This document shows positions 12,530-46,922 of a stretch of DNA of 64,000 nt, one piece after another. The notes under the pieces were generated by a model. The model searched no databases. It saw only the letters and a list, made by a program, of their open reading frames with translations, and was not told the origin of the DNA. Source of the stretch: Escherichia phage mistaenkt; sequence record MN850587.1; one strand, written 5' to 3'. A program made the position numbers and the translations under genes. Positions within the stretch are counted from its first letter, which is position 1. Each line of letters starts with the position of its first letter.

Positions 12530-12608
12530 CTTATTACTCTCTCTTGTTAGTTAAAATTACTTAGTGGCTCGTATTCTAAGGGGCTTTTCAGCCCCTGTCA
12601 AACTATTT

Positions 12609-14975: not shown

Positions 14976-15033
14976 AATAACTTTCCTCTTGGGTTGTTTG
15001 ATGCAGAGACTTTAAAGAACTCTGCACCGATTG

Positions 15034-15216
15034 TCAACTGTTTCCGTTATGTTTCTTTCCAGTTCCACCACAATAAGGGCAGCAACCATAACTTACCAGA
15101 CCTGTACCATCACAATCTTCACACTCTTCTGCACCGAAATAGTGTTTAGCCAGAAGGTATCCGATTACAATCAGACCACCAAATGACAGGATTAACTCTA
15201 ACCAATAACCTTGCAT
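15034..15216 (-). CDS. Small membrane protein with DnaJ-type zinc finger (60 aa)
   Basis: TM segment LELILSFGGLIVIGYLL followed by two CxxCxGxG repeats (CEDCDGTG, CPYCGGTG). Confidence 0.5.
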   Translation of the reverse strand: MQGYWLELILSFGGLIVIGYLLAKHYFGAEECEDCDGTGLVSYGCCPYCGGTGKKHNGNS

Positions 15217-20949: not shown

Positions 20950-21105
20950 TTTAACTTTCCTCTTAATTCACAATAAAGGAGTCCTAAAAAGAACCCTAGT
21001 AAGACAGAACCGATGAATAAACCAATGATGCTCTCTGCCATAACCAACATCCAATAAAAAAAGGTGATGCAAGCCTATCAAGACTTACACCACCTTGTCA
21101 ACTAC

Positions 21106-36398: not shown

Positions 36399-39098
36399 AT
36401 GGAAAACGTAGATTTTGAAAACTTGCACTTGGTAGGTGATACCGAAACTGATGGGTTACTCCTTGAGTTCACAAAAGCACACGTAATGGCATTTGCAGAT
36501 TACAAAGATGACAGTGACGAACCTGCTGTGTGGGTCTTCACTGATGAACCTATTCTTGGTCACAAATGCACTAAGTACATTAAAGGTGGTCTTCGTGAAG
36601 GTGTAGAGTTTGCTCTTAAGGCAAAACGTCTCTGCATTCATAACGGCCTTGGCTATGACTGGTGGGTGTTCAATCACATTGCACCGGACTTATGGAACTT
36701 TGATAATCCGAAGTGTAAACCTTGGGGAGACTTCTTTCAGGATTCTCTTATCCAGTCTCGTGTTCAGTGGATGGATAGACCTACACCGAAAGGTTACAAA
36801 GGTGCTCATGGTTTGGCTGCATGGGGTGCTCGTGTTGGTGTTCGTAAACCAGAGATTGAAGAGTGGGGTGTTTGGAATGCTGATATTCTGAACCGTGTTG
36901 TTGAGGATATTCGAATCAACGCCAAAACTAAACGTGCTCTTGATAACGAATACCTGAAGCTGAAGAAGTGTGGTGTAGACACTTATGAAACCTACATGCG
37001 AGCTAAAGAAACATCTTTCTGGATGAGTCAGCAAGCTATCAACGGTTGGAAAGCTGATATTGAACTTATGCAGTTCCATGTCAAAGAACTTGACAGAATG
37101 ACTGATGAATTAGCTGCTGAAGTTGAGCCTCATCTGCCACCGACTATCAAGACGAAAGGTAAAGTTACTGGTGAAGAGTTTGCAAGGGCTTGGAACGAGT
37201 ATGTTGAGACATTTGGTGAAGCAGATGGTTTGAAGCGTATCACTAAGTATCCAAAAACTAAGTTCCGTCAGCAGGTTCGCAATGGTGAGATGCAGACTTA
37301 CGCTATCAAACCTTTTGGTAAGCCAACTACCAAGATTTTCAACATTGAGAAGCGTAACTGCTACACTCCAACTAATACGGTTACTGGAGAAGAGTACAAA
37401 GAAGGTTTCGTGGCAATGAAAGATGCTCGTGCAGTTTGTAACGAGTTGAATGCTGCGATTGATAAGAAGTGCAAAGACTGGAAGCCAGTTAAAACTGTGA
37501 AGACTGTGAAGTACTACAACAATCACGTAGTAAATCACTTTGAACTTGAGTCAAGTCGTTACACAGGTTTGATTGATGCACCTTATACACCGATTGAGTT
37601 TGAAGTTTCACGTATGACTCAGGTTGCTGTTGTGAAGGATTATCTGAAAACTCTTGGCTGGATTCCTGATGACTGGAACTACAAGAAAGATTCTGATGGT
37701 CGTCCGGTGAAGGTTTGTCGCTTCAAAGACAACAAGAAGATGATTCGTAAACATCCTAAATGGCAAGAGATGGTGGAACGTTGCGGATTGAACTATGTTG
37801 AACATGAAGGTGTACAGTACATCGAACACAACTGGTCTGTGAAGAAGTACACAGATTTGCTTGAACCTTGCTTGATTCGTACTTCACCGAAACTAACTGA
37901 ATCATCTTACGATACGATTGAAGGTGAACTTGGACAGAAGATTGCGAAGTACTATACTTTAATGCACCGACGCAGAACTATCGAGAACTCAAAGGATGAC
38001 GAAAAAGGTTGGTTAAACCAGATTCGTCCAGATGGTCGTTTGAGTGCTGGTGCAATGGTGTTTGGTACTTCAACTGGACGTATGACACAATATGGAATTG
38101 TGAACGTACCTTCTGGGGCTGCTGTTTATGGTGAACCAATGAGGGCAGTCTGGATTTGTGAAGAGGGAACCAACGTAGTATCCGTTGATATGAACTCTGC
38201 ACAGCTTGTTTTACTGTGTAACTTTATGGGCGATAAAGAGTTCACCAAAGCGGTAACTCAAGGTAAAGAAGAGATTGAGTTTATCCGTCAGGAAGATGGC
38301 AGATATTACTGCAAACACTTTGACGAATACCTGAATCCAGAAGTTGATAAGTATCTACGTTATGACTCTGAAAACGACTTGTACGTAGTTTATTCAGGTA
38401 CTGATGCTCATACACTGAACAGCATCTACTTCAGCTTGAACGAAGAACAAGATATATTGACTTGTCGTATGACTCAGGATGAAAATCTTCTTCACGAAAT
38501 TAGTAAAGGTCGTAAGAAAGCTAAGAATGGTATCTATGCGTTACTGTTCGGTGCTGGTGATGAGAAGTTTGCTAAGACGATTAAAGCTGCGACTACTCAA
38601 GAAGGTGCATTAACTAAACAGACTTACTTTGTTCGTTTACCGAAGATTAAGAAACTGTTAGATGACTTGGAAGCTGACTTTAAAGCAACTAAGAAAGCAC
38701 TCGAAGAGGTATTTGGTAAGACTGCTGCAATTGCTAAAGGTGGTTTTGTCAAGGTTGCTGGAGCATGGTTGTGGTGTAAGTCTCCACACAAACTGTTGAA
38801 CTACTTGCTGATGGGTTCAGAAGCACAAGTTCAGAATGAAGCAATCAACCTTGCATGTCGTCGTATGATTGATGAAGGTTTGATGAAGTTGAATGGTCGT
38901 AAGCCAGCTATCGGTGCTCGTTTACTCTGTGCATATCACGATGAAACAAGTTGGGAATGTCCAGAGAGCATGACAGCAGAAGTTAAGGCTGTAACTGACT
39001 GGTACTACGGACAAGCTTCTAAGAACTTAGGGCTTCGTAAAGAAACTCTGGTAACAGGGACTGGTAAAGTTGGTAAGTCTTGGTATGAGGTGCATTGA
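36399..39098 (+). CDS. DNA polymerase, family A (T7-like), with 3-5 exonuclease domain
   Basis: Exo I motif DTETDG near the N-terminus; KKAKNGIYALLFG and HDE motifs in the polymerase domain; 899 aa. Confidence 0.9.
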   Translation: MENVDFENLHLVGDTETDGLLLEFTKAHVMAFADYKDDSDEPAVWVFTDEPILGHKCTKYIKGGLREGVEFALKAKRLCIHNGLGYDWWVFNHIAPDLWNFDNPKCKPWGDFFQDSLIQSRVQWMDRPTPKGYKGAHGLAAWGARVGVRKPEIEEWGVWNADILNRVVEDIRINAKTKRALDNEYLKLKKCGVDTYETYMRAKETSFWMSQQAINGWKADIELMQFHVKELDRMTDELAAEVEPHLPPTIKTKGKVTGEEFARAWNEYVETFGEADGLKRITKYPKTKFRQQVRNGEMQTYAIKPFGKPTTKIFNIEKRNCYTPTNTVTGEEYKEGFVAMKDARAVCNELNAAIDKKCKDWKPVKTVKTVKYYNNHVVNHFELESSRYTGLIDAPYTPIEFEVSRMTQVAVVKDYLKTLGWIPDDWNYKKDSDGRPVKVCRFKDNKKMIRKHPKWQEMVERCGLNYVEHEGVQYIEHNWSVKKYTDLLEPCLIRTSPKLTESSYDTIEGELGQKIAKYYTLMHRRRTIENSKDDEKGWLNQIRPDGRLSAGAMVFGTSTGRMTQYGIVNVPSGAAVYGEPMRAVWICEEGTNVVSVDMNSAQLVLLCNFMGDKEFTKAVTQGKEEIEFIRQEDGRYYCKHFDEYLNPEVDKYLRYDSENDLYVVYSGTDAHTLNSIYFSLNEEQDILTCRMTQDENLLHEISKGRKKAKNGIYALLFGAGDEKFAKTIKAATTQEGALTKQTYFVRLPKIKKLLDDLEADFKATKKALEEVFGKTAAIAKGGFVKVAGAWLWCKSPHKLLNYLLMGSEAQVQNEAINLACRRMIDEGLMKLNGRKPAIGARLLCAYHDETSWECPESMTAEVKAVTDWYYGQASKNLGLRKETLVTGTGKVGKSWYEVH

Positions 39099-39610
39099 TG
39101 CAAGATTGTGGTTTTACTCATGAGCAATTAAAATCATGGATTCACTACGACCCCTTAACAGGTGTCTTAACTTGGATTGGTAGACCTCCTAACAGTGGTA
39201 GGGTGGTTATAGGCAGTCAAGCTGGGTCAATCAAAAGGACAAAATCTGGTGTGTATCTTCATACACAGATACTAGGTTACAGGACAGGGAATCACCGTAT
39301 TGCTTGGTTCTGGATGACTGGAAAATGGCCTGATAAACATATTGACCATAAGGATGGAGATGGTCTAAACAATGCTTGGGAGAATCTTAGAGAAGCCACG
39401 AAAGAGCAGAACATGGCTAACAGGAGACAACCTAGAACATCAAAGAGTTTAAAAGGCACAAGTAGAAGCAAATCTGGAAAGTGGATTGCACAGATTAACC
39501 ATAATGGAAAGACTAACCATATTGGCACATACATGACCGAGCAAGAAGCCCACGAAGCTTACTGTGAAGCTGCTATAAAACTCCACGGAGATTTTGCAAA
39601 ACTTAGTTGA
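39098..39610 (+). mobile_element. HNH homing endonuclease with AP2-type DNA-binding domain
   Basis: HIDHKDGDGLNNAWENLREATKEQN (HNH core), then GKWIAQINHNGKTNHIGTYMTEQEAHEAYCEAA (AP2-like); ATG overlaps the polymerase stop (TGATG). Confidence 0.75.
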
Positions 39611-39662
39611 CAAGGTGCTCATGGAAGAGTACCTTATACTATATATTGTATAGGAGACTTGT

Positions 39663-40069: not shown

Positions 40070-40317
40070 GCAATAAAGAGCAAGAAGCTTTAGCAATCTT
40101 CAAGAGTGAAGACAAATCAATAGCTTTTGTCTCAGAGGCTTGGTGCAGAGATTTGGGGTATGATTGGTATCTCTTCTTATGCGCTAAGAAAGATGTTAAG
40201 CCAGTTGATGAAACCCGATTCAAAGAACTGTATAATGTCTGCCAAGATGGTTATGAAGAACATTACAAAGGTTCTTTGAATCCTGTAAATTCAAAAGCTT
40301 CAGATTTATTTTATTGA
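40066..40317 (+). CDS. Hypothetical protein (about 83 aa)
   Basis: ATG at 40066 after a GGAG SD; track start 40051 is TTG. Confidence 0.5.
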   Translation: MSNKEQEALAIFKSEDKSIAFVSEAWCRDLGYDWYLFLCAKKDVKPVDETRFKELYNVCQDGYEEHYKGSLNPVNSKASDLFY

Positions 40318-41101: not shown

Positions 41102-42202
41102 ATGACAATTCTGTACAAACAAAATAAAGATGGTTCTTTCAACGTCTGGTCATGCGTTGCTGTAGGTGACAAAGTGGTTACCACGTATGGCAAAGAAAAC
41201 GGTAAAATGATGTTTGAAGAGTACACAGCAGAACCGAAGAACATCGGTAAAAAGAATGAGCGTAATGCTGAACAGCAAGCTCTCTTTGAAGTTACTGCTA
41301 AGTATAAGAAGCAAGTTGACCGTAAAGGTTATGCTTATTCAAAATCTGCTGCACAGGAAGTTGAGAAGGTTGGTGTACAGCTTGCTCATGATGCTTCCAA
41401 GGTTAGCCACAAAAAATATCTGAAATTTCCTGCTGATGCTCAACCGAAACTTGATGGTGTTCGTTGCAGAATTTCAAGGGATGTTGATTCAGTAAGCTTC
41501 ACAGCTTATTCTCGTGAAAATACTGTTTACAATGTGCCTGAAGAGTTAATTCCTGATTTGCTTCTCATGCTTAAGTGTCACCCACAAGTTGAAGACTTTG
41601 ACGGTGAGATTTATGCTCATGGCTGGGACTTAGAAGATATTGTATCCATGATTAAGAATGCTGACAATCCAGACCGTCACCTTCTTAAATTCTACTGGTA
41701 TGATATCTGTGACAATACTAAATCATGGCCTGAGCGACGAGAGGTTATTGATAACTCACCTATCGTTGAACTTGGTGATGCTTGCAGGGTTGTTCCTGTA
41801 CAGACTATCCGTGTAAACTCTTGGGAAGAGTTCGACAAAGCCCATGATAATTGGGTTAAGCTGAAGTTTGAAGGGGCTATGTACCGTTCAATCTCTGAAG
41901 AATCTTTCTACGAGTGTAGTCACCGTTCATACTTCTTAATCAAGCATAAGAAGATGCACACTGAAGAGTTTAAAGTAACTGGTGTGAAGACTGATAAGCG
42001 TGGACATGGTAAGTTTGTTGTAGAGACTCTTCCTAACGTCTTTGTGGATGTTTCATGGAAGACTACCCATGAGAAGAAACAGTATCTTGCTGAACACCCT
42101 GAAGAGTTTATCGGGAAGCCTTTGACGGTTCAGTTCCAGAAGATGACTCGCAAGGGGTCTTTGCAGTTCCCTGTTGGGTTAGTTATTAGAGATTATGAAT
42201 AA
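41102..42202 (+). CDS. ATP-dependent DNA ligase
   Basis: Nucleotidyltransferase motif I KLDGVRC (adenylation lysine); 366 aa. Confidence 0.85.
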   Translation: MTILYKQNKDGSFNVWSCVAVGDKVVTTYGKENGKMMFEEYTAEPKNIGKKNERNAEQQALFEVTAKYKKQVDRKGYAYSKSAAQEVEKVGVQLAHDASKVSHKKYLKFPADAQPKLDGVRCRISRDVDSVSFTAYSRENTVYNVPEELIPDLLLMLKCHPQVEDFDGEIYAHGWDLEDIVSMIKNADNPDRHLLKFYWYDICDNTKSWPERREVIDNSPIVELGDACRVVPVQTIRVNSWEEFDKAHDNWVKLKFEGAMYRSISEESFYECSHRSYFLIKHKKMHTEEFKVTGVKTDKRGHGKFVVETLPNVFVDVSWKTTHEKKQYLAEHPEEFIGKPLTVQFQKMTRKGSLQFPVGLVIRDYE

Positions 42203-42208
42203 AAGTTG

Positions 42209-42236
42209 TTGACATACTCTCTCCGGTAGTTATACT
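42209..42236 (+). promoter_or_regulatory. Strong sigma70-like promoter (TTGACA-16-TATACT) within an inverted repeat
   Basis: -35 at 42209-42214, -10 at 42231-42236; 9 bp inverted repeat CCGGTAGTT (42223-42231) / AACTACCGG (42260-42268). Confidence 0.55.
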
Positions 42237-42286
42237 AGCAATATAAAATTTGATATAGGAACTACCGGATGAGTTAGGAGAAGAAA

Positions 42287-42667
42287 ATGAAAAAGATTAT
42301 GGTAGGTGTCATTCTGGCAACTCTGAGTTTTGGTGCATCAGCTATGAAGATGCCTGAAGCAGACTTTAGCAAGGTCTCTACAGAGGCTTGTCAGATTGTT
42401 CGTAAAGTCGTAACAGATGCTGGAGAGTTGGCTAAACCGTTATCTTCTCCAACTGTCATGGAAATGTCTGACCGCATCACTGATTACAATTATCGTGTGA
42501 TGGCAGATTACTACGAAGCTGTCTCTGATGCTATGGTCACTCAGGATATTGATTTGCTTGATGACAAAGACATTGAGAAGGTTGAAGACACCAAGCGTGA
42601 CATGATGGATGAAACTTTCAAAGGTGTTCATTATTTTGTTGAAAAGCGTACTTGTGTAGGTCTATGA
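42287..42667 (+). CDS. Putative secreted or periplasmic protein (126 aa)
   Basis: Signal peptide MKKIMVGVILATLSFGASA; acidic mature region. Confidence 0.6.
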   Translation: MKKIMVGVILATLSFGASAMKMPEADFSKVSTEACQIVRKVVTDAGELAKPLSSPTVMEMSDRITDYNYRVMADYYEAVSDAMVTQDIDLLDDKDIEKVEDTKRDMMDETFKGVHYFVEKRTCVGL

Positions 42668-42668
42668 T

Positions 42669-42872
42669 ATGAAGAAGAATCGTTGCAAGAAGAACTATGG
42701 AGAAGTGCTTGACGATGAAGGTCATGTCATCTTCCGAGTTTACTGTGCAGATGACTCTGAAGTAGATAAAGCACTTGATGACTATATCAACGGTACTCGT
42801 GAAAACGTCAGAGCAACAAACATAGATTCATTGATTGACACTTCCAGAAAACGGAGGAAGAAAGATGAATGA
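42669..42872 (+). CDS. Hypothetical protein (67 aa)
   Basis: ORF. Confidence 0.5.
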   Translation: MKKNRCKKNYGEVLDDEGHVIFRVYCADDSEVDKALDDYINGTRENVRATNIDSLIDTSRKRRKKDE

Positions 42873-43164
42873 AGTCTTTGACCCTTACGCCCCACAAGAT
42901 AAGTGGGAAGCTGATAGAGAGTATGAGATGGAAAGTTATATCTGCCCAATGGATGTAGACGAAATGAGAGAGTTCGTTGCATTCCGTTTTGAAAAAGAAA
43001 TTGAGAAAAGAAAACTTTCTCAGGCACAAGTTGCAAAGATTTGTGATATCTCTCAAAGTCGTGTTTCCAACATAGTCAATGGTACTGGAAAGATTACCCT
43101 TGAATACATGTTGAAAGCTTGTGAAAAACTTGGTGTTAACTTCAACTTAAGGCTGTCAGATTAA
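42865..43164 (+). CDS. XRE-family helix-turn-helix DNA-binding protein
   Basis: LSQAQVAKICDISQSRVSNIVNG helix-turn-helix; ATG at 42865 with SD. Confidence 0.6.
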   Translation: MNEVFDPYAPQDKWEADREYEMESYICPMDVDEMREFVAFRFEKEIEKRKLSQAQVAKICDISQSRVSNIVNGTGKITLEYMLKACEKLGVNFNLRLSD

Positions 43165-43165
43165 T

Positions 43166-43525
43166 ATGAAACGTGAAAATGCAATCTTCAAAGGTAACTT
43201 TGCAATTGGCTTCTATGGGAAACCTACCGAAGCTGAGAAGGTGTGGGGGCATGAGATTCTTGAAGAGATGATTCCAAAACTCCAAAAAGGAGAAATAAAA
43301 CATTCTGAAAAGAATCGTGTGAAAGGTTATATGGCAATTGGTTCAGCTATATCCAACATCAAACTTGAGACGACATGTGCAAAAGATGTTCGTAACTCAT
43401 TTATAAAGGAACTCTTCAACAACCTTGATGGTGTAGATGCTACCGCTATCTGGCTTGATGTTGATGGTGCTAAGTATACAACTTTCGTATTTAAAAATGA
43501 GGATATCAAATGTCTCTTCCCGTAA
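43166..43525 (+). CDS. Hypothetical protein (119 aa)
   Basis: ORF. Confidence 0.6.
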   Translation: MKRENAIFKGNFAIGFYGKPTEAEKVWGHEILEEMIPKLQKGEIKHSEKNRVKGYMAIGSAISNIKLETTCAKDVRNSFIKELFNNLDGVDATAIWLDVDGAKYTTFVFKNEDIKCLFP

Positions 43526-44010
43526 AAATTGACTTGTTCTTCGGATACAATCTGATGACAGGATGTATGCTTAGTCTTCCAAAGTCTCCTTATCGTACTG
43601 AGAAAGGTGCTGTGAAACGTGCTGCACACTACAATAATGACTTAGGTCGTTTGCAGACGATTTACAAGTGGCTTGAAGAAGATGGTCGAGTAAATGAGTA
43701 CTTCCATAAACTTCGTATGGCTAACGAAGAAAATAAGATGGGCTATGAACTGTTCCCACGTCTTTACAAAGTGACTTCACCAACTTCTCAAACTTGGAAT
43801 GAGAAGTCTATTGAGGGTTACAAAAAGGTCACAATGTCTCCGTTTAGTAGTGGTGCAGAGTTTGAGAAGCTACGTGAGATAATTTATCAGACTGTTGCAA
43901 AGCGTGTTGCAAAGGGTCTTTCTTATAATGAAAAGATTGACTGGAACACTCAAAAGGTTATACAATTCTTTGCATACGATAATGACAAACAAACTTTTGT
44001 AGAGGTTTAA
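43510..44010 (+). CDS. Hypothetical protein (166 aa)
   Basis: ORF. Confidence 0.6.
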   Translation: MSLPVKIDLFFGYNLMTGCMLSLPKSPYRTEKGAVKRAAHYNNDLGRLQTIYKWLEEDGRVNEYFHKLRMANEENKMGYELFPRLYKVTSPTSQTWNEKSIEGYKKVTMSPFSSGAEFEKLREIIYQTVAKRVAKGLSYNEKIDWNTQKVIQFFAYDNDKQTFVEV

Positions 44011-46235: not shown

Positions 46236-46248
46236 TAGATACAAAAAA

Positions 46249-46268
46249 GGCTCCTTTTTACGGGAGCC
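46249..46268. terminator. Bidirectional rho-independent terminator between convergent operons
   Basis: GGCTCC-TTTTTACG-GGAGCC with T-runs on both strands. Confidence 0.75.
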
Positions 46269-46274
46269 TTAAAC

Positions 46275-46843: not shown

Positions 46844-46922
46844 TATGTCACCTCATCAGCCAAGATGGTGAGAATACCTATGAAAATATTAACACCATCT
46901 TAACATTTAGTCAACAAATTGA

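Follow-up and report, generated by a model that had tools for sequence, protein, structure and literature searches.

A conserved sigma70-type promoter nested in an inverted repeat after the ligase gene of a Felix O1-like phage: a probable promoter and stem-loop cassette

We analyzed a stretch of 64,000 nucleotides of Escherichia phage mistaenkt (MN850587.1; hereafter, the window), which is a Suspvirus of the Felix O1-like Ounavirinae. Comparison with related phages indicates that the sigma70-type promoter heading a unit for a secreted-looking protein and an XRE-family helix-turn-helix (HTH) protein is genuine and conserved, and that the inverted repeat around this promoter is a selected feature and not a chance occurrence. 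The region from 42203 to 42286 is probably a composite regulatory cassette that combines a promoter with a stem-loop, as in the PeSL type, and is made up of four overlapping elements. By the same comparison, the outer repeat almost certainly does not serve as a binding site for a repressor. We infer from sequence features that the promoter is active, where transcription starts and that a hairpin forms in this region.

Results

The ligase open reading frame ends at 42202, and TTGACA-16-TATACT follows directly at 42209-42236 on the plus strand, at the coordinates given in a preliminary description of the window. The -35 hexamer, TTGACA (42209-42214), and the -10 hexamer, TATACT (42231-42236), are separated by 16 nt and match the consensus at 11 of 12 positions; only two such sites are present between 35 and 50 kb. 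The -35 is preceded by an AT-rich stretch (42184-42208, plus strand) within which the ligase gene stops (TAA, 42200-42202), with 80% A+T in these 25 nt compared to 60% across the window. Transcription is predicted to start at approximately 42243. A Shine-Dalgarno (SD) sequence, AGGAG (42276-42280), and the ATG of the first gene (42287-42289) complete the region (42276-42289, plus strand). In a MAFFT alignment (A1) with rows from Suspvirus, Mooglevirus and contig L070, both hexamers were unchanged across three genera while the spacer varied freely, and GGAG and the ATG were also invariant. The -35 was invariant in Felixounavirus P1 as well, and AA(A/G/T)TTG directly 5' of TTGACA was common to all relatives. 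A scan of IMG/VR for AANTTGTTGACA-N16-TATACT returned mainly unrelated promoters, along with approximately 25 Ounavirinae contigs.

The first gene (gp46; 42287-42667, plus strand) encodes a 126-amino acid protein of PHROG 4332, a family of unknown function. Its N-terminus, MKKIMVGVILATLSFGASA/MK, looks like a signal peptide when judged by eye, in keeping with the signal-peptide protein described earlier as the opening of the unit. Homologues of this gene lie downstream of the cassette in 258 phage records; a search for related loci with the gp46 protein matched only SUSP1/2. The second gene (42669-42872, plus strand) encodes a 67-amino acid protein of PHROG 4473, likewise of unknown function, and its final bases lie within the beginning of the third gene. 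The third gene (gp48; 42865-43164, plus strand) encodes a 99-amino acid protein of PHROG 1373, transcriptional regulator. Its description as an XRE-family HTH protein was borne out by Pfam matches to HTH_3 (E = 6.5e-12) and HTH_37 (E = 8.5e-8); the nearest solved relative is the HigA2 antitoxin 7ewc (E = 0.0017).

A literature search found no transcript maps for Felix O1-like phages. RT-PCR of Felix O1, the only data of this kind, placed the ligase gene (gp88) and the next gene (gp87) together in the "middle" class (PMC3185647), which does not favor the earlier suggestion that the promoter marks a timing switch.

The arms of the inverted repeat flank the -10 and the predicted start and are 28 nt apart, as had been described; each arm is 10 bp long, not 9 as first given. 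The left arm, TCCGGTAGTT (42222-42231, plus strand), takes up the 3' portion of the spacer and shares its last base with the first T of the -10, and the right arm, AACTACCGGA (42260-42269, plus strand), falls at approximately +17 to +26 relative to the predicted start. The arms are perfectly complementary, with centers 38 bp apart. The predicted fold of 42222-42269 has an energy of -16.3 kcal/mol, and the 98-nt context of the hairpin had a z score of -3.1 compared to shuffles. The left arm is upstream of the predicted start and would therefore be absent from the transcripts of this promoter itself, so the hairpin needs RNA that reads through from the ligase gene. The SD had an unpaired probability of 0.35, 0.85 or 0.35, depending on the length of upstream RNA that was folded. 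A Rfam covariance-model search of 41800-43300 gave nothing relevant at E <= 1. We also considered a canonical intrinsic terminator and rejected it: the loop is 28 nt, the 3' tail of the right arm is TGAGTTAG, which has no U-tract, and the terminator scan gave no call here. True terminators in the window have loops of 4-8 nt, mostly with 3-6 T among the next 8 nt.

Within the window, promoter-like matches were not enriched (27 observed, 32.9 expected), perfect inverted repeats of at least 10 bp with loops of at most 60 nt numbered 6 compared to 4.4 in resamples, and the motif of the outer arms had no second copy. An ordinary promoter-like match next to a fortuitous 10-bp repeat would fit these counts, since neither exceeds shuffled expectation within the window alone. 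However, the hexamers are invariant across genera, the arms covary and there is genome-wide enrichment, and we give coincidence next to no probability. It is because of the comparison with relatives that the promoter and the outer repeat are taken as real; the sequence of the window by itself carries neither of them beyond chance.

Five unrelated sets of arms occupy one position in this comparison, and every set is complementary. Besides the arms of the window, these are GAAACATAGCAAGT/ACTTGCTATGTTTT in Sf13, CCTGACGGGT/ACCCGTCAGG in Mordin, TTAGTGGGT/ACCCACTAG in L070 (with one T·G pair) and TGGTGAGTA/TACTCACCA in Felix P1. The hexamers and the position of the stem were retained in Sf13, in Mordin, Michonne and HP1, in contig L070 and in Felixounavirus, with entirely different arms. 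The hairpin is shifted in SUSP1/2, Sf17/19 and Felix O1, where it brackets the -35. Since the window type has its stem displaced by 1 nt from that of the Mooglevirus types, A1 could not carry one structure across its rows; the formal pair count therefore used A2, which leaves out the rows of the window type, and these were tabulated on their own. In A2, 6 of the 10 pairs of the outer helix had changes in both partners, and the paired cells amounted to 96%. When the partners were slid, 29-40% of cells were paired and at most one pair was doubly changed, and none of 500 shuffles reached the observed value. Within one arm type, the outermost pair forms a compensatory series: Mordin has C-G, ESh19 and Sf16 have C·A, and HP1 has T-A. 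The comparison holds just four or five independent arm types, and some of the arm differences may reflect wholesale replacement of the cassette instead of stepwise compensatory mutation. The inner helix showed no covariation because its sequence is conserved.

The preliminary description had proposed that the XRE HTH protein (42865-43164) could bind the repeat. As an operator with two half-sites, through which that protein would repress the promoter, the repeat is suitably placed, with its arms on either side of the -10 and the start site. The same unit also encodes, 600 bp further downstream, an HTH_3 protein whose closest relative of solved structure is a HigA-type antitoxin, from a family that autoregulates at palindromes. 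However, the five unrelated arm sequences are set against a recognition helix, ISQ(S/A)RVSNI, that is invariant in all lineages save for one S/A position. The HTH protein of SUSP1/2 is 99% identical to that of the window, yet the hairpin in those phages has a different sequence and lies at the -35. The centers of the putative half-sites are 38 bp apart, compared to about one helical turn for an HTH dimer, and operators of dimeric HTH proteins do not look like 10-bp arms at this distance. Mismatches of the G·U kind on the sense strand, which are described below, would have no meaning in the recognition of duplex DNA. Lastly, about a dozen further promoters in the window share this layout, each with arms of its own, which one repressor cannot explain. 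We consider the operator proposal very improbable.

A second dyad lies within the loop of the outer hairpin and is a better candidate for an operator, or else for an initial-transcribed element. This AT-rich box, ATATAAAATTTGATAT (42241-42256, plus strand; consensus ATAYA-N7-ATAT), spans the predicted start. Its 16-nt frame is free of indels in every HTH-bearing lineage and begins 4-7 nt past the -10. With a matrix built from its variants, the box scored 18.6 on the plus strand and 15.6 on the minus strand, and it is unique in the window and the remaining genome. Operators of the XRE/HigA type are autoregulatory palindromes at or just past the promoter and are bound by an HTH dimer. The box is like them in being a 16-bp near-palindrome over the start of an operon with a HigA2-like HTH gene, which makes it a candidate site. 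It is unlike them in that its T/C variants (ATATA or ATACA) do not correlate with the S/A variant of the recognition helix; the outer repeat is a different element. The HTH protein may regulate the promoter, in which case it would act through this box, a reading to which we give somewhat less than an even chance. A role of the box in the initial transcribed region or the 5' untranslated region is equally possible.

Promoters nested in hairpins recur across the window. We counted 21 intergenic, sense-oriented, promoter-like sites, and a stem of at least 8 bp overlapped 52% of them, compared to 1% of coding sites and 3% in shuffles. The mean overlapping stem was 7.4 bp for intergenic sites compared to 5.2 bp for coding sites and 5.3 ± 0.2 bp for shuffles, with none of 200 shuffles reaching the intergenic value. 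Hairpin density was 9.4 per kb in intergenic DNA and 3.2 per kb in coding DNA. About 13 hairpins are promoter-embedded, and 12 of the 13, including that at 42222-42269, have no U-tract. Single mismatches in intergenic stems, read on the sense strand, were 17 G·U and 2 A·C, compared to 20 and 33 in coding stems. Read from the hairpin list, approximately 7 independent stems embedded in promoters contain a G·U mismatch, and A·C mismatches are absent from such stems. The bias toward G·U on the sense strand points to a role in RNA, and it is from this bias together with the covariation that we infer an RNA-level role for the hairpins.

The sister cassettes differ in how the hairpin and the promoter are arranged. 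At 46862-46914 (minus strand), AAGATGGTG and CACCATCTT bracket the -10 of TTGACT-17-TAATAT; the arms are conserved in sequence in all relatives, so that this cassette is uninformative for covariation except for one change in a stem extension, T·G to C-G. The cassette at 39612-39662 (plus strand) runs from TTGACA through the hairpin AAGGTGCTC-atggaa-GAGTACCTT, which has one G·U, to ATACT, an AT-rich dyad, an SD and an ATG. At 15000-15037 (minus strand), the hairpin GGTGCAGAG/CTCTGCATC encloses the -10 of TTGACA-17-TAAAGT, and at 12573-12601 (minus strand), the hairpin AGGGGCT-gaaa-AGCCCCT lies entirely within the spacer of TTGACA-17-TAGAAT. A repeated family occupies six gaps of the early region (2579-6430, minus strand), at 2579-2652, 3511-3594, 4334-4418, 5399-5487, 6001-6087 and 6346-6430. 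Its members have TTTACA-17/18-TA..AT, with TGGGG(C/T)TA and TA(A/G)CCCCA bracketing the -10, followed by the conserved CCTAAACTGGAGATTCAAAAATG. At 21061-21105 (minus strand), TTGACA lies beside and within the hairpin formed by AAGGTGGTG/CATCACCTT, which has one G·U pair, and a run of seven T follows; this site resembles a true intrinsic terminator that has a promoter-like -35.

An RNA-level hairpin could also be a site for RNase III or another endonuclease on the polycistronic read-through RNA, with the cut leaving a protective hairpin at the 3' end of the ligase message. This reading is a sub-variant of the RNA-hairpin model. Early mRNA of phage T7 is a polycistronic transcript with intergenic RNase III processing hairpins that are large, interrupted and free of U-tracts. 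The hairpin in the window is likewise a large, interrupted intergenic hairpin without a U-tract, and it would leave a stabilizing 3' hairpin. In Mordin, HP1 and Sf13, the folds consist of a lower stem of approximately 10-14 bp and an upper stem of 5-8 bp, separated by an asymmetric internal loop; these sizes are similar to those of the T7 sites, the energies are -20 to -24 kcal/mol, and the sense-strand G·U bias also speaks for this reading. In contrast, the upper stem of the window version is weak, at just about 3 bp; the inner helix shows conservation of sequence and no covariation; many sister cassettes have simple loops on stems of 7-9 bp, too short for RNase III; and, unlike the T7 sites, the hairpin has a host-type promoter embedded in it. 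We consider it unlikely that the hairpin is specifically such a processing site.

A further alternative places the repeat at the level of DNA, where extrusion of a cruciform or hairpin driven by supercoiling would toggle the promoter or create a recombination site independently of RNA. The early promoters used by the virion RNA polymerase of phage N4 depend on hairpins and act as DNA structures, and Horwitz and Loeb reportedly engineered a cruciform-regulated promoter in E. coli in 1988. The cassette resembles these promoters in having an inverted repeat within the promoter core, and differs from them in its G·U bias, which points to RNA, in its polymerase, which would be the host sigma70 holoenzyme, and in its large loop. 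Arms that flank the -10 and an AT-rich center would be expected to favor extrusion, and indels abut the cassettes. However, a cruciform needs pairing in both strands, and the excess of G·U over A·C (17 to 2) fits RNA; moreover, 10-bp arms with a 28-nt loop would be expected to extrude poorly. PeSLs do give rise to mini-circles through recombination inside the cassette (PMC2839356). We consider a purely DNA-level role quite unlikely.

Gene content changes at the cassettes. SUSP1/2 have approximately 2 kb between two such promoters, with a 62-amino acid open reading frame, repeat arrays and open reading frames of 200 and 146 amino acids. An extra 49-amino acid open reading frame is present at the cassette in Mordin, ESh19 and KhF3, and Kolesnikvirus is without the entire module. 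The type of promoter cassette has changed independently of the HTH gene. The position of cassettes at the edges of gene indels between related phages is consistent with their being recombination points for the shuffling of modules. A role in recombination is compatible with a role in RNA.

Discussion

PeSL (promoter-early stem-loop) cassettes were described in the T4-type phages RB49/phi1, PST/T4 and nt-1/KVP40 (Arbiol et al. 2010, PMC2839356; Comeau et al. 2014, PMC4122927). They have a near-consensus intergenic sigma70 promoter with a spacing of approximately 17 nt, and a stem-loop that lies between the -35 and -10 or, in the RB49/phi1 type, overlaps the -10. An SD and start codon follow on the 3' side, the copies are many, the associated open reading frames are small and accessory, indels lie nearby, and the stem-loop is linked to termination or attenuation. 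The region at 42203-42286 is similar in its near-consensus promoter with an AT-rich upstream region, in its left arm within the spacer overlapping the first base of the -10, and in the SD and ATG at its 3' end. The cassettes of the window are also multicopy, lie among small accessory genes and sit beside indels between close relatives. There are differences. The stems are not of the G(n)-loop-C(n) form, mostly have no U-tract and have loops of up to 28 nt; the region at 42203-42286 lies within a block for replication and nucleotide metabolism and not in a classical hyperplastic region, and it has an additional conserved 16-bp dyad box. The phage is one of the Ounavirinae and not T4-like. We therefore file it as PeSL-like in a new lineage, outside the original set. 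Our literature search found no report of PeSL-like elements in Ounavirinae or Felix O1-like phages.

In the mechanism we propose, the first of the four elements, the strong host sigma70 promoter TTGACA-16-TATACT, would start transcription of the accessory block from gp46 through thymidylate synthase. The second would be the stem-loop, variable between lineages yet always kept, with its left arm in the spacer and its right arm approximately 17-26 nt into the transcribed region. The third would be the conserved AT-rich box, a 16-bp dyad that spans the start site, and the fourth the SD with its start codon. The hairpin would form only in read-through RNA from the upstream DNA polymerase and ligase genes, where it would most likely mark a transcript boundary. 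It could attenuate or pause the read-through, or it could provide the ligase mRNA with a stable 3' hairpin or a processing site, and the embedded promoter would then re-initiate transcription for the genes downstream. Attenuation is the weakest step of this scheme, since the outer hairpin, with no U-tract and a 28-nt loop, is not a canonical intrinsic terminator.

A broader and rather unlikely version of this scheme is that the promoter-embedded read-through hairpins of Felix O1-like phages, being without U-tracts, serve as insulators and portable recombination joints, with HigA-like autoregulation added at this locus through the box nested in the loop. Hairpins that pause, process or stabilize 3' ends may in that case reset transcription at every module, and the box may act as a hairpin loop on read-through RNA and as the operator of the embedded promoter on DNA.

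The Felix O1 genome paper called passage past many terminators and the control of timing unknown (PMC3185647). If most intergenic promoters of these phages are nested in selected RNA hairpins, they would supply a concrete, testable map of transcript boundaries. For annotation in general, the present case warns against taking an inverted repeat that surrounds a -10 as an operator just because an HTH gene lies nearby. Such a map would also help to annotate and engineer Felix O1-like phages, a group in wide use for typing and as candidates for therapy or biocontrol. The PeSL idea would be extended past the T4-like phages, and the indels beside cassettes in the Felix O1-like phages would have an explanation.

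Promoter and inverted repeat beside the ligase gene

The window derives from a virulent, Felix O1-like myovirus (Ounavirinae, genus Suspvirus), and its identity to phages EP1, CHB7, and EcSzw-2 is 93-95%. The promoter/repeat site occupies an 84-bp gap (42203-42286) that follows the DNA ligase gene (41102-42202) and precedes a series of small genes on the + strand, which encode a 126-aa protein (gp46, 42287-42667) with an N-terminus resembling a signal peptide, a 67-aa protein, a 99-aa XRE HTH protein (gp48, 42865-43164), and four more ORFs, followed by dihydrofolate reductase and thymidylate synthase. The 67-aa and HTH ORFs (together 42669-43164) overlap (ATGAATGA), and the HTH protein is HigA2-like (HTH_37, PDB 7ewc). 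The 166-aa protein at 43510-44010, annotated in CHB7 as a second HigA2-like HTH, had no match in Pfam. A bidirectional intrinsic terminator, AAGGCTCC...GGAGCCTT (46247-46270), with T-runs on both strands, lies between the convergent thymidylate synthase and holin genes and corresponds to Felix O1 t79/t80.

The preliminary description placed the promoter correctly (TTGACA at 42209-42214, a 16-nt spacer, TATACT at 42231-42236), and its XRE-type assignment was confirmed (HTH_3 domain, E = 6.5e-12). The inverted repeat that it reported is present, but each arm is 10 bp rather than 9: TCCGGTAGTT (42222-42231) and AACTACCGGA (42260-42269) match perfectly and are separated by 28 nt. The arm motif had no second occurrence anywhere in the window. 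Judged from the window sequence by itself, the promoter match and the repeat are no better than chance, with 27 promoter-like matches observed vs 32.9 expected and 6 perfect repeats (at least 10 bp, loop up to 60 nt) vs 4.4 in resamples. Perfect inverted repeats of 12 nt (40217-40282, 42-nt loop) and 11 nt (4062-4113, 30-nt loop) were found inside predicted ORFs, neither associated with promoter-like hexamers.

Conservation of the gap among relatives

The equivalent gap was taken from relatives and aligned. TTGACA, TATACT, an AT-rich box followed by AGGAAC, the SD, and ATG were invariant, supporting the promoter part of the earlier interpretation; the promoter spacer varied freely. Every lineage type tabulated had a stem at the same place, built from unrelated arms: TCCGGTAGTT/AACTACCGGA in the window, CHB7, and EcSzw-2; GAAACATAGCAAGT/ACTTGCTATGTTTT in Sf13; CCTGACGGGT/ACCCGTCAGG in Mordin and Michonne; TTAGTGGGT/ACCCACTAG, with one T·G wobble, in metagenomic contig L070; and TGGTGAGTA/TACTCACCA at P1, the ligase-proximal promoter of Felixounavirus. 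In a formal count of five sequences in one shared register, both sides of the outer helix had changed in 6 of 10 pairs, and 96% of cells were paired. When the partners were slid, 29-40% were paired with a double change in at most 1 pair, and none of 500 shuffles matched the observed values. The outermost pair differs among phages of the Mordin type: C-G in Mordin, C·A in ESh19 and Sf16, and T-A in HP1. EP1 (L137), the closest relative, has a T->A change in the left arm (TCCGGTAGAT; equivalent to window 42230) that reduces the stem to 8 bp and -13.1 kcal/mol and leaves TATACT unaffected; the mutation may be recent, or the weakening may be tolerated.

The gp46-adjacent promoter of SUSP1/2, Sf17/19, pEC-M719, and Felix O1 carries a 13-bp stem (AAATAAGCTATAA/TTATAGCTTATTT) around the -35, then T5. 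In the cassettes of this type from SUSP1/2, Sf17, pEC-M719, and Felix O1 (L010, L133, L136, L138), with the right arm of the AT-rich stem and the T5 lying in between, TTGACA and TATACT are spaced by 23 nt, which is too long for sigma70; TTGACA-17-TATTTT is an alternative promoter there. In the window, the cassette at 39611-39662 is similarly spaced (TTGACA-22-TATACT), a hairpin filling the stretch between the hexamers.

Probable pairing in RNA and possible roles of the hairpin

Stems were searched irrespective of mismatch type, and single mismatches were then classed. On the sense strand, intergenic stems had 17 G·U vs 2 A·C mismatches, whereas coding DNA stems had 20 vs 33. When the resulting list was read by eye, approximately seven independent promoter-embedded stems had a G·U mismatch and none had A·C; further T·G pairs occur in the L070 stem and in the extension of the stem at 46862. 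Such an excess would be expected of pairing in sense RNA, not of cruciform DNA or a site recognized by protein. Because the predicted start (~42243) is downstream of the left arm, the hairpin would be formed only by RNA reading through from the ligase side. The stem is predicted to be stable, at -16.3 kcal/mol (z = -3.1 for the 98-nt context), and no Rfam family matched.

A classical intrinsic terminator was considered for this copy and ruled out because no U-tract follows the hairpin. Among stems embedded in promoters, 12 of 13 have no U-tract. In the window's canonical terminators, which have small loops, the next 8 nt mostly include 3-6 T. Candidate roles are attenuation or pausing, endonucleolytic processing, and 3'-end protection.

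The HTH protein and its possible operator

The preliminary description proposed that the HTH protein could bind the outer repeat. The recognition helix is ISQ(S/A)RVSNI across all lineages, whereas the arms are unrelated; SUSP1/2 and the window share 99% identity in this protein, yet the SUSP1/2 hairpin is different and relocated. The arm centers are also 38 bp apart. This operator model is therefore unsupported.

Within the hairpin loop is a 16-bp element, ATATAAAATTTGATAT (42241-42256), present in all lineages in the same frame without indels (consensus ATAYA-N7-ATAT) and conserved both where the hairpin encloses it and where the hairpin is upstream. It is unique across the whole ~87-kb genome. 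The box starts 4-7 nt after the -10 and thus covers the predicted start, and it is near-palindromic (scores of 18.6 and 15.6 on the two strands). The nearest solved relative of the HTH protein is a HigA2 antitoxin (E = 0.0017), whose family includes dimeric autoregulators. A near-palindrome over the start and a relative of this kind make the box a reasonable candidate for an autoregulatory operator, a role that we put at somewhat below an even chance. Box variants do not follow the single variable helix residue, and the box could equally well be an initial-transcribed or 5'-UTR element. A weaker AT-rich dyad, ATACTATATATTGTAT (score 12.5; 39636-39651), resembles the box and may offer the same protein a second site; it lies just past the hairpin of a cassette at 39612-39662.

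Recurrence of the cassette

All intergenic gaps of the window were inspected in sense orientation. Promoter-in-hairpin cassettes were present at about a dozen sites, with different arms at each, including 46862-46914, 21061-21105, 15000-15037, 12573-12601, and 1640-2039 (all - strand), 39612-39662 (+ strand), and a repeated - strand family at 2.6-6.4 kb. The mean overlapping stem was 7.4 bp at 21 intergenic sense-oriented promoter-like sites vs 5.2 bp at coding-DNA sites and 5.3 ± 0.2 bp in fixed-hexamer shuffles, none of which (0/200) attained 7.4 bp. Stems of at least 8 bp occurred at 52% of these 21 sites vs 1% in coding DNA and 3% in shuffles. Hairpin density was threefold higher in intergenic than in coding DNA (9.4 vs 3.2 per kb).

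Within 39095-39662, an HNH/AP2-type homing endonuclease gene lies directly 3' of the DNA polymerase gene; its TTG start overlaps the polymerase gene end, and its TGA stop is within the TTGACA of the next cassette. In the early region (2382-6924, - strand), small ORFs lie in series, each preceded by a cassette of ~85 bp: CTTTACATGGGG(C/T)TA...TA(A/G)GCCCCAGATAAAGAG or TTGACA...GGGCAAGCAAGCCC, then a near-invariant CCTAAACTGGAGATTCAAAAATG. At this length the repeats could support homologous recombination, a process proposed for the promoter-early stem-loop (PeSL) cassettes of T4-type phages.

Likeness to PeSLs

The cassette anatomy described here fits that of PeSLs, which are multicopy, lie among accessory genes, and adjoin indels; one of their stem-loops was demonstrated to terminate transcription, and mini-circles were demonstrated from recombination between cassettes (PMC2839356, PMC4122927). 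Indel adjacency is common to both. SUSP1/2 have an insertion of ~2 kb between the Felix-type P1 and a second promoter, P2, containing a 62-aa ORF, repeat arrays, and ORFs of 200 and 146 aa; Mordin, ESh19, and KhF3 have an extra 49-aa ORF. In Kolesnikvirus (Erwinia/Hafnia; L008, L009), the ligase gene is followed by one overlapping ORF and then directly by dihydrofolate reductase. The whole unit is accessory, because these phages are without the promoter cassette and the gp46-gp52 block, HTH gene included. Cassette type has also been swapped independently of the HTH gene.

The ligase-gp46 interval of Felixounavirus and SUSP1/2 has a highly conserved P1 (TTGACATAGAAAATTTGGTGAGTATACT...), then non-coding arrays rich in GGT/ACC-type short repeats (1032-3047 of the SUSP1 locus, L091; 905-1200 of the Felix O1 locus, L138; also L006 and L007). 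In SUSP1 the arrays lie on both sides of the 200-aa and 146-aa ORF pair, and one such repeat is annotated in the KhF3 record as 'possible binding site of StbAB'. This insertion, absent from the window, may be an origin, a partition-like site, or a non-coding RNA.

The Felix O1 genome paper gave a few promoters and many terminators, left their overlap unremarked, and stated that transcriptional control was unknown (PMC3185647). The literature searched yielded no description of PeSL-like elements in Ounavirinae, and an earlier one may still exist. The comparison gives good support for the predicted promoter/hairpin structure. These data suggest that the feature at 42203-42286 is a PeSL-like promoter/RNA-hairpin cassette, newly recognized in Ounavirinae as far as that literature extends.
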